Shown here in pieces: positions 1 to 1,658 of a stretch of 7,341 nucleotides of DNA. Numbering within the stretch: the first letter of the stretch is position 1; every line of letters begins with the position of its first letter. The stretch is taken from the IMG/VR virus record IMGVR_UViG_2654587792_000035, positions 1 through 7,341 of that record; one strand, given 5' to 3'. The position numbers and the translations under genes are program-made. The stretch comes from a virus. Its lineage: Duplodnaviria; Heunggongvirae; Uroviricota; Caudoviricetes. The notes under the pieces were generated by a model. It ran no database searches and was not told the origin of the DNA. It saw only the letters and a list, made by a program, of their open reading frames with translations.

Positions 1-1239
1 ATGAGCAGCGCAATTCATAGACTTAGCGACACTCTTTTACGAAAATTAAGCGGATCACCAACCACAAAAAACGCCTTTTTTAATGACGGTGGCAATCTTA
101 GCGTAAGACATTCCACCAGCGGCCTGTTAACCTGGTATTTCACTTACAGGGCCGGAACTGGCAGGCAGGTATCACCGGAACGCCTGAGACTGGGCAACTA
201 TCCCGATCTGAGCCTGAAAGCAGCCAGGGAAAAAGCGGCACAGTGTCGCGCCTGGCTGGCGGAGGGGAAAAATCCACGCCATGAGCTTAATCACACAGTG
301 CAGGAAGCGTTAGCCCCTGTGACGGTTAAGGACGCGCTCACTTACTGGCTTGAGTCGTATGCGAAGGAAAAGCGCACTGACCACGAATCACTGAAAAGCC
401 GTATCAATAAGCACATAATCAGCCAGATTGGTGCTATGCCGCTGGATAAATGCGAGCTACGCCACTGGCTGGCCTGTTTTGACCAGCTTGCTAACCGTAA
501 TCCGGTATCAGCCGGCTTTTTGTTGCAGGTATGCAAACAGGCGCTTAAGTACTGCCGTAAACGTCGCTACGCCGTCAGTAACGTTCTTGATGATATGGTC
601 GTAGGTGATGTGGGAAAAAAAGCAGAAATAAGCGAGCGAGTGCTAACAAACAAGGAGCTTGGCGAGCTACTCCGCGCACTGGATGAAAAAATTTTCCCGC
701 CGTACTACAGCGCTTTAATTCGCCTTCTGATTGTCTTCGGATGCCGTACCACTGAGCTAAGACGCTCCGAGGTTCGGGAATGGGATTTTAAAGAAATGCT
801 CTGGACTGTGCCGAAAGAACACAGCAAAACGAAGGTAGCAATATTCAGGCCAATACCGGAAGCGATCTTGCCGTTCGTCATGAAGCTGGTGGAGCAGAAC
901 AGGCACACGGGCTTATTGCTTGGAGAACTGAAAGGGCAATCATCCGTAGCAGAGTACGGAAGAACGGCACACAGACGCATTAATCAAACCCCCTGGTCGT
1001 TGCACGACATCCGGCACACATTTACAACCATGCTGAACGATTTAGGCGTGGATCCGCATATTGTCGAACAGCTTACTGCCCACCAGATGCCAGGAATGCA
1101 ACGCGTCTATAACCACTCCCGTTATCTCGATGCAAAGCGTGACGCTCTTAATCTATGGGTAGACCGTCTCGAGCTTCTCCAGAACAATGATGAAAAAATC
1201 GTTGTTATGACCCCGCGAATTTACCCCCAAAATTCTTGA
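1..1239 (+). CDS. int: Tyrosine recombinase / site-specific integrase, P4-type (412 aa)
   Basis: Full 412-aa ORF from the ATG at position 1 to the TGA at 1237-1239. N-terminus (LSDTLLRKLSG...FFNDGGNLSV...YRAGTGRQV) has the arm-binding-domain pattern typical of P4-family integrases; C-terminus carries LHDIRHTFTT (HxxR box) and a downstream Tyr in RVYNHSRY consistent with the R-H-R-Y catalytic set. Upstream context cannot be seen, so a start further 5' cannot be excluded. Confidence 0.9.
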   Translation: MSSAIHRLSDTLLRKLSGSPTTKNAFFNDGGNLSVRHSTSGLLTWYFTYRAGTGRQVSPERLRLGNYPDLSLKAAREKAAQCRAWLAEGKNPRHELNHTVQEALAPVTVKDALTYWLESYAKEKRTDHESLKSRINKHIISQIGAMPLDKCELRHWLACFDQLANRNPVSAGFLLQVCKQALKYCRKRRYAVSNVLDDMVVGDVGKKAEISERVLTNKELGELLRALDEKIFPPYYSALIRLLIVFGCRTTELRRSEVREWDFKEMLWTVPKEHSKTKVAIFRPIPEAILPFVMKLVEQNRHTGLLLGELKGQSSVAEYGRTAHRRINQTPWSLHDIRHTFTTMLNDLGVDPHIVEQLTAHQMPGMQRVYNHSRYLDAKRDALNLWVDRLELLQNNDEKIVVMTPRIYPQNS

Positions 1240-1245
1240 CAAATT

Positions 1246-1278
1246 ACGGCTGTTTTTTCTTTAAGAGATTACAGCCGT
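1246..1278. promoter_or_regulatory. Perfect 8-bp inverted repeat ACGGCTGT-N17-ACAGCCGT immediately 3' of the int stop codon; candidate protein-binding site or weak RNA hairpin
   Basis: Arms at 1246-1253 and 1271-1278 are exact reverse complements; the 17-nt spacer is T-rich. No U-tract follows on the + strand, so it is not a canonical intrinsic terminator. A consensus TTGACA hexamer (1236-1241) overlaps the int stop but has no good -10 at 17 +/- 1 bp. Confidence 0.3.
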
Positions 1279-1290
1279 GAATAGATCTTA

Positions 1291-1317
1291 GAATATCGGG
1301 GAATATCTGCAAATATC
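1291..1317. repeat. Three direct repeats of (G/A)AATATC spaced exactly 10 bp apart (1291, 1301, 1311); helically phased candidate binding sites in the int-alpA intergenic region
   Basis: Sequence reads gaatatcggg gaatatctgc aaatatcttc; the 10-bp periodicity places all copies on one DNA face, as expected for cooperative binding by a recombination directionality factor or regulator. Function is inferred. Confidence 0.35.
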
Positions 1318-1658
1318 TTCTCTTTATATGTGTCAACTATCGAAAAAAATTGAAATGTCTTCTTCTGAGTTCTTATTCTCTGTTTCTTGATTGTTCCAAC
1401 ACCTGATGGTTTATCTATTTGTTTTTAATGAGGTAATTCAGGTGACATGCCAAATGACGACATTTTTTGTTGCGTCGCTTAAAAACTCGTGACACGATTT
1501 TAAACACTAACGAGCTTCTACGAACCTTAGCGAACAAAGCCTTTAGTATGGTTGTGTTTTTAATTTAAGAGGTGAAAAAGAATCTAAGTAATATCCGAAC
1601 TCATATATCTACAGCTAAGAGAAAAGTTTATATACGTAATTTTTATGTAGGTTTTTGT

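Follow-up and report, generated by a model that had tools for sequence, protein, structure and literature searches.

A stem-loop and a lineage-specific AATATC repeat array between int and alpA of a Gram-negative phage-inducible chromosomal island

The DNA analysed here (the window) is a stretch of 7,341 nucleotides, positions 1 to 7,341 of the IMG/VR virus record IMGVR_UViG_2654587792_000035, and belongs to a Gram-negative phage-inducible chromosomal island (PICI), an established type of phage satellite, to which it is assigned by its gene content and attachment (att) site. The window starts at the integrase gene int, and alpA, encoding a small excisionase and regulator, begins 420 bp downstream of int on the same strand. 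The spacer between the two genes has a GC content of 33-35%, compared with about 50% in the flanking genes, and opens with an inverted repeat and three phased AATATC repeats. The original prediction regarded these repeats as places where AlpA or the integrase (Int) may bind to control excision or the expression of alpA. Our analysis favours, with what we regard as an even chance of being correct, a different reading: the segment would be a fast-evolving buffer at the end of int, composed of a 3' stem-loop and a slippage-expanded, lineage-specific remnant of a terminator-type hairpin. The genes and features at this part of the locus are as follows.

Positions 1-1239, plus strand: int, P4-type tyrosine integrase of 412 amino acids (Pfam Arm-DNA-bind_3, 1.3e-16, and Phage_integrase, 1.1e-17; PHROG 1, integrase).
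Positions 1244-1280, plus strand: hairpin 1, a stem-loop just after the int stop that contains an 8-bp inverted repeat (from RNA folding).
Positions 1291-1320, plus strand: three tandem 10-bp units, GAATATCGGG, GAATATCTGC and AAATATCTTC, the AATATC repeats (from the sequence and shuffles).
Positions 1659-1868, plus strand: alpA, 69 amino acids, AlpA/Vis/TorI-type winged-helix excisionase and regulator (Pfam Phage_AlpA, 3.8e-16; PHROG 2790).

Both flanking genes lie where the original prediction had placed them. DNA matching the window at 99.8% identity forms an island of about 10 kb in Escherichia coli D5 (locus L001), between cspD/yljB and clpS, and there int is annotated as an integrase. PHROG 2790 denotes an excisionase and transcriptional regulator, and AlpA also matched PDB 8C3T, an AlpA family protein, at 1.6e-7.

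The repeats were found as described, AATATC occurring three times at exact 10-bp spacing (1292-1297, 1302-1307 and 1312-1317). This three-copy pattern was reached in 0 of 200 dinucleotide-preserving shuffles, and ATATC-N5-ATATC gave two overlapping matches, both within the array, where 0.01 were expected. Units 2 and 3 agree at 8 of 10 positions, and in relatives such as IH5 the corresponding units, AAATATCTGC and AAATATCTTC, agree at 9 of 10. The helical phasing of an array bound by a recombination directionality factor (RDF) is thus present, three units standing exactly 10 bp apart; the 10-bp phase alone, however, arises automatically when a 10-bp unit is duplicated in tandem. A search of the L001 island revealed no second occurrence of the array and none in the attL or attR arms, and the att core is about 1.46 kb away. 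As a word, AATATC is over-represented throughout the window (12 matches against 3.6 expected); nine of the matches lie outside the array and have no phased arrangement, two of them near the AT-rich region of the replication origin (5394 and 5571). Phased pairs at the origin were considered and rejected: ATATC does occur twice there, but with a spacing of 9 bp, and hence does not match the array.

The perfect 8-bp inverted repeat, ACGGCTGT (1246-1253) and ACAGCCGT (1271-1278), was likewise confirmed. As plus-strand RNA, hairpin 1 forms a 10-pair outer and a 5-pair inner stem with an energy of -20 kcal/mol (z = -5.8), and none of 200 shuffles folded as well; the minus strand reached only -15.5 kcal/mol. 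In the variants from the related loci L003 and L004 the left arm is common and the right arm different, yet they still fold, and the plus strand was the better one in all three variants tested. Being always more stable on the plus strand is what is expected of an RNA element of the int transcript, and hairpin 1 is predicted to be the 3' stem-loop of that transcript. It has the stable, GC-containing stem on the transcribed strand that an intrinsic terminator requires, but no U-run follows, the tail being GAAUAGAUCUUAG, and it is therefore not a canonical terminator. A terminator scan of positions 1100-2000 flagged nothing on the plus strand and passed over hairpin 1 for the same reason, the missing T-run.

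In sister islands, the words of the array fold into a second hairpin, which is located at the position of the array and has an A-run on one side and a U-run on the other. The A2ir type, with two AATATC inside a TCGTCGA/TCGACGA inverted repeat, folds with -14.5 kcal/mol (z -3.4); L012 has an 8-pair stem, CGACGAAU/GUUCGUCG, followed by U7; and the AAGTTCG form runs from A6 to U7. The second hairpin of the sister islands is built like an intrinsic terminator placed where int ends. The three-unit form of the window does not fold (z +1.3) and has no U-run.

The variation of the spacer was followed in 80 IMG/VR loci with related integrases and 13 E. coli loci. In all relatives whose spacer is non-coding, the int stop is immediately followed by a 10-bp-phased array, with differing words. 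In group A (Int 92-100% identical), the array is AATATC in three copies, AATATC in two copies, A2ir, AATATCG with AAGTTCG or AAATTCG, or AAGTTCG in two copies (G2). Group B islands (Int 75-79% identical) have 4-7 GAACAAC-type boxes, which are the reverse complement of their own att boxes. In both groups the copy number shifts by exact 10-bp units, as seen between GCUET01 and TR026 and between L089 and L090. Among 35 group A haplotypes, positions 1291-1320 are the most variable stretch of the spacer, and the approximately 160 bp beside alpA (1496-1658) are the most conserved. Identical AlpA alleles occur with three-copy AATATC, two-copy AATATC, mixed and two-copy AAGTTCG arrays, that is, without covariation, and an alignment of Int contained no column separating AATATC-type from AAGTTCG-type islands. 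PICIs whose AlpA is 92-97% identical to that of the window have an accessory open reading frame (ORF) instead of the int-alpA spacer and no AATATC array. Scanning IMG/VR for the three-copy pattern returned only the island family of the window and tandem repeats unrelated to it, most of them in contigs of giant viruses. Small ORFs in the spacer were rejected as genes: none is conserved, the 20-amino-acid ORF at 1328 loses its ATG in relatives, and the indels are not multiples of three.

The ends of the island lie outside the window and were read in L001 (attL 14618-14801, attR 25085-25230), with the core ATGATAGTTATyTATCAT at both junctions. Both att arms contain a doubled 12-mer, GGTGTAGTTAAT, together with nnGTTCG boxes in 10-bp phase, of which attL has two beside the core and four further in, and attR has three. 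No AATATC array is shared with the att sites. In the 32.5-kb L001 locus, GTTCG-N5-GTTCG occurs five times against 0.16 expected, twice on attL, twice on attR and once in the int-alpA spacer, and all five matches are inside the island. How the two motif classes change with the two proteins was read from three comparisons with the window.

L009 and L011 (another attachment site): Int N-domain 60-62% and AlpA 92-97% identical; the 12-mer becomes TGTGTGGTCAGT, also doubled; the boxes stay TTGTTCG.
Group B (including a Shigella locus): Int N-domain 76-83% and AlpA 59-68% identical, the latter with an altered recognition helix; the 12-mer is kept; the boxes become TTGTTYC.
L069 (the group B sub-lineage measured): Int N-domain 75.8% identical, the lowest, with AlpA of the L045/L052 type; the 12-mer is GGTGTAGTCACT; the boxes are as in the rest of group B.

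Because the 12-mer changes with the N-domain of Int and the boxes follow the AlpA allele, we infer that the doubled GGTGTAGTTAAT is the arm site of Int and that the GTTCG boxes, spaced by 10 bp and present both in the att arms and at 1521-1535, are sites of the excisionase AlpA. The literature that we searched contained no mapping of AlpA binding sites in PICIs.

Further downstream in the spacer, and before alpA in some other islands, the following features were found.

Positions 1350-1379, plus strand: sigma70-like site TTGAAA, 18 nt, TATTCT (score 9.3; the same in L003, L004 and L012).
Positions 1487-1497, no strand assigned: perfect 11-bp palindrome TCGTG-A-CACGA, flanked by A5 and T4, in the invariant block 1486-1507.
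Positions 1521-1535, minus strand: pair of GTTCG boxes 10 bp apart (plus strand CGAACCTTAGCGAAC), of the class found also in the attL and attR arms.
Positions 1567-1580, plus strand: box AAGAGGTGAAAAAG, conserved in the group A alignment; it is similar to a ribosome-binding site, though not followed by a start codon.
L009:2370-2470, L010:2370-2470, L011:2430-2470 and L243 (about 60 bp upstream of alpA): stem-loop before alpA.

The pair at 1521-1535 is the sole match to GTTCG-N5-GTTCG in the window (0.02 expected), and all group A islands have kept it; two further contexts, unrelated to that of the window, likewise show GTTCG or CGAAC twice at a 10-bp spacing just upstream of alpA. The notion of phased RDF-type boxes in the spacer controlling alpA may accordingly be retained for the GTTCG pair, which is the likely AlpA/RDF site, and not for AATATC. 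The palindrome stands in a block (1486-1507) with almost no variation among the 35 haplotypes and looks like an operator for a dimeric regulator. Box AAGAGGTGAAAAAG recurs as AAGAGGCGAAAAAG directly after the box array of group B islands (L045:4321-4334), the spacers of which are otherwise unalignable. In the PICIs with an accessory ORF (the L009/L010/L011 type and L243), the GTTCG pair is enclosed in a stem-loop with compensatory changes in its stem, followed by a run of T5-T7 that ends at the ATG of alpA; L009 and L010 additionally carry two GTGATATCAC palindromes 22 bp apart with a TAGAAT hexamer resembling a -10 element upstream. This arrangement suggests an attenuation-type or structure-dependent control of alpA in these islands.

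The original prediction also stated that alpA has no convincing sigma70 promoter. Nothing strong was found beside alpA, but the statement needs softening, since a conserved site matching 9 of 12 positions is present at 1350-1379. It is the only conserved sigma70-like site in the spacer (its score of 9.3 compares with 11.7 for a site at 2581) and is a candidate distal promoter of alpA. A minus-strand promoter inside the array (TTTGCA-17-TAAGAT, score 7.1) was rejected as possible but weak, its -10 element not being conserved in relatives. The IHF consensus WATCARNNNNTTR had no match in the spacer, P2 Ogr/P4 Delta-type sequences (TGT-N12-ACA) were not found, and RNAalifold produced only weak, unconvincing helices for the putative alpA leader (1384-1665).

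From these observations, a course of events at the end of int may be proposed. Hairpin 1 would separate int from the control region of alpA, acting in a terminator-like or stabilising manner. The AATATC units would be a lineage-specific tandem expansion, in 10-bp steps and by replication slippage, of the words that form the second hairpin in sister islands; in the lineage of the window, this hairpin and its U-run would have been lost and the short repeat array left behind. Any activity of the array would then be modulatory, exerted from positions about -70 to -90 relative to the promoter-like site (1350-1379), and the control elements proper of alpA would be those further downstream: the palindrome, the GTTCG pair and the AAGAGGTGAAAAAG box. 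Several findings weigh against this proposal. Hairpin 1 is not followed by a U-run, the second-hairpin terminators of the relatives are energetically weak (z -1.5 to -3.4), and a simple terminator scan flagged none of them on the plus strand in L003, L004 and L012. The three boxes would lie near -71, -81 and -91 of the site at 1350-1379, distances resembling those of a class I activator. In all three-box haplotypes the hexamers are invariant while the spacers between them vary (0 of 18 hexamer columns compared with 20 of 143 nearby spacer columns, P ~0.07), a hint of constraint on the word that is weak because the haplotypes are related. Finally, a phased 10-bp array directly after the int stop is found in both diverged integrase groups, and the 4-7 good GTTCG-class boxes of group B suggest that arrays at this place can be functional binding sites.

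Some of these findings would also suit a genuine binding array for AlpA, or for another small RDF-like protein of relaxed specificity, with the boxes head-to-tail on one helical face and activating or insulating alpA; we consider this possible though rather doubtful. AlpA activates its own promoter in the islands EcCICFT073 and EcCIMP1 (PMC6092414, PMC11773190), and RDFs of the AlpA/TorI family use several sites, TorI binding five on attL (PMC2951348). The G2-type relatives have two AAGTTCG boxes with a perfect GTTCG core at the array position, group B has 4-7 such boxes, and the invariance of the hexamers and their distances from the promoter-like site point the same way. AATATC, however, departs from the att-arm boxes at the two positions where they are invariant, the G and the T of nnGTTCG. 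The word is absent from attL, attR and the upstream regions of other alpA genes with 92-97% identical AlpA, it does not covary with the AlpA alleles, mixed arrays of AATATCG and AAGTTCG exist, and the array is the least conserved segment of the spacer. The claim that these repeats are AlpA sites thus found no support. Binding by the N-terminal domain of Int, the other half of that claim, has in its favour that the repeats are phased, direct and adjoin int, and that Int possesses an arm-binding domain. We rejected it as scarcely credible because the array is absent from both att arms, distant from the core, devoid of covariation (no Int residue separates the array types) and so poorly conserved; the motif that does change with the Int N-domain is the doubled 12-mer in both arms.

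The array might instead be recognised by something from outside the island. It could be where a host nucleoid protein (H-NS, Fis or IHF) docks or nucleates, or an intrinsically bent stretch, and so help to keep the AT-rich alpA region silent until helper induction. This would agree with the low GC content of the spacer, and a host factor would fit the absence of covariation between the array and the proteins of the island. On the opposite strand the boxes read (C)GATATT, which may resemble the high-affinity H-NS motif TCGATATATT or tCGATAAATT. G2-type relatives nevertheless swap the word for the GC-richer AAGTTCG, the spacer lacks an IHF consensus, and AATAT is not a true A-tract, all of which makes this explanation unlikely. 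We attach even less probability to a swappable docking site for the alpA inducer of a helper phage, whereby the helper able to wake the island would depend on the word of the array (AATATC, AAGTTCG or GAACAAC) and on its copy number. Helper phages do induce alpA transcription independently of the SOS response through an unidentified inducer (PMC6092414), and the word changes between very similar islands with no matching change in island proteins, a rapid change that this explanation, if true, would account for. Against it, the IMG/VR pattern scan revealed no phage genome with a related array, other PICIs with nearly identical alpA have no array at all, and the way in which the array varies has the look of slippage and hairpin decay. 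The reading of the segment as an end-of-int buffer is the one we prefer, as the most economical.

The remaining content of the window and its relatives is in keeping with the assignment of the element. Beyond alpA lie two small minus-strand ORFs (1983-2171 and 2214-2519), one of them YlcI/YnfO-like, then an Icd-like gene and a D5-type primase gene, and further downstream an iteron-rich origin, SSB and a DUF1441/small-terminase-like (TerS-like) gene. The origin-like cluster, downstream of the primase gene at 5360-5595, comprises at least 10 iterons, GGTGAACAG or CTGTTCACC, which surround an AT-rich stretch and occur in both orientations. The traits of a PICI are present: int and alpA point the same way, the replication gene is of the primase type, the island measures about 10 kb, and it occupies a dedicated chromosomal att site flanked by direct repeats, while a full set of virion or lysis genes is absent. 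Of 5426 complete E. coli genomes, 322 contain the spacer region, nearly always in a single copy. The gene content, the location of the island between cspD/yljB and clpS and this distribution together identify the element as a Gram-negative PICI. A scan of GTDB genomes with Int returned a single Shigella locus. In L014:3001-4231 (Shigella flexneri SFBU1023), the spacer retains the full box array, and the integrase frame is interrupted after 115 codons, for which reason this island is probably immobile.

Several other observations concern the rest of the island. A strong, terminator-like minus-strand hairpin just past alpA (1896-1915; eight pairs, six of them GC, with a T-rich tail) probably ends the convergent minus-strand ORFs. 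The best sigma70-like site of the window, TTGACG-17-TAACAT (2581-2609, score 11.7), overlaps a 12-bp inverted repeat, GTGTGTTTCATG/CATGAAACACAC, with a third half-site near 2540; as the region 2540-2625 lies between the divergent YlcI/YnfO-like gene and the Icd-like and replication genes, it is likely the operator-promoter of the replication operon. The island of E. coli D5 contains, in the interval from SSB to DUF1441 (L001:21106-23908), a 1.9-kb gene for a fusion of a ClpP-like prohead protease and a major capsid protein, which is missing in the window (6306-6572), the islands being otherwise near-identical. Rfam covariance models had no match in the whole window at E values up to 1.

In the sensing of helper phages by Gram-negative PICIs, the transcription of alpA is the switch. 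The present analysis removes the AATATC array as a tempting but probably wrong candidate and offers better ones for experiments, namely the GTTCG pair at 1521-1535, which recurs in both att arms and upstream of other alpA genes, the invariant palindrome (1487-1497) and the promoter-like site at 1350-1379. Covariation provides a simple rule for assigning the motifs of att arms to Int or AlpA, and the more useful product of this work is a directly testable prediction of both site classes. The island itself belongs to a known kind; its array, though not described before, is an ordinary feature of the spacer, lineage-specific and fast-evolving.

In phage lambda, the tI/sib region provides a terminator and 3' stem-loop downstream of the integrase gene. 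The island resembles such arrangements in having a stable, GC-containing stem-loop directly after the int stop, to which sister islands add a second hairpin with an A-run and a U-run; it differs in that hairpin 1 has no U-run and that, in the lineage of the window, the second hairpin is replaced by the repeat array. Signs of retroregulation by RNase III were neither looked for nor encountered. As in EcCICFT073 and EcCIMP1, int is followed by a co-oriented alpA, the region of which responds there to AlpA and to helper induction (PMC6092414, PMC11773190); those studies mapped no binding sites, and the island of the window occupies another attachment site. The int-alpA region of EcCICFT073 was sought in two CFT073 stretches of 46-49 kb, which contained a lambdoid prophage and not the island. 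The Pseudomonas antiterminator AlpA, a much larger protein of eight helices that recognises GGGACG between -35 and -10 (PMC9371919), was dropped as a model because only the name is shared. The iterons of satellite origins are, like the array, short phased repeats in an AT-rich non-coding stretch, but those of this island (GGTGAACAG at 5360-5595) are a different word in a different place.

Arm-type Int sites, such as P'1-P'3 of lambda and the doubled tgTGTATTGCa of HE-PICI attP (PMC10111431), share with AATATC that they are tandem direct repeats close to an integrase gene. They are, however, found on either arm no further than roughly 150 bp from the core, and they change together with the N-domain of Int, which fits the doubled GGTGTAGTTAAT and not AATATC; the 12-mer doublet also resembles the doubled HE-PICI motif (PMC10111431). 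The arrays of RDFs (Xis, AlpA, TorI, Vis and Cox, with five TorI sites on attL of KplE1; PMC2951348) are, like AATATC, short direct repeats about one helical turn apart, beside an integrase gene and in elements encoding a protein of the AlpA family. Known RDF arrays are nevertheless located in an att arm and have a word common to other sites of the same protein, whereas AATATC is found neither at the att arms nor near other alpA genes, and it is the GTTCG boxes, at 1521-1535 and in the att arms, that fit the description of an RDF array better.

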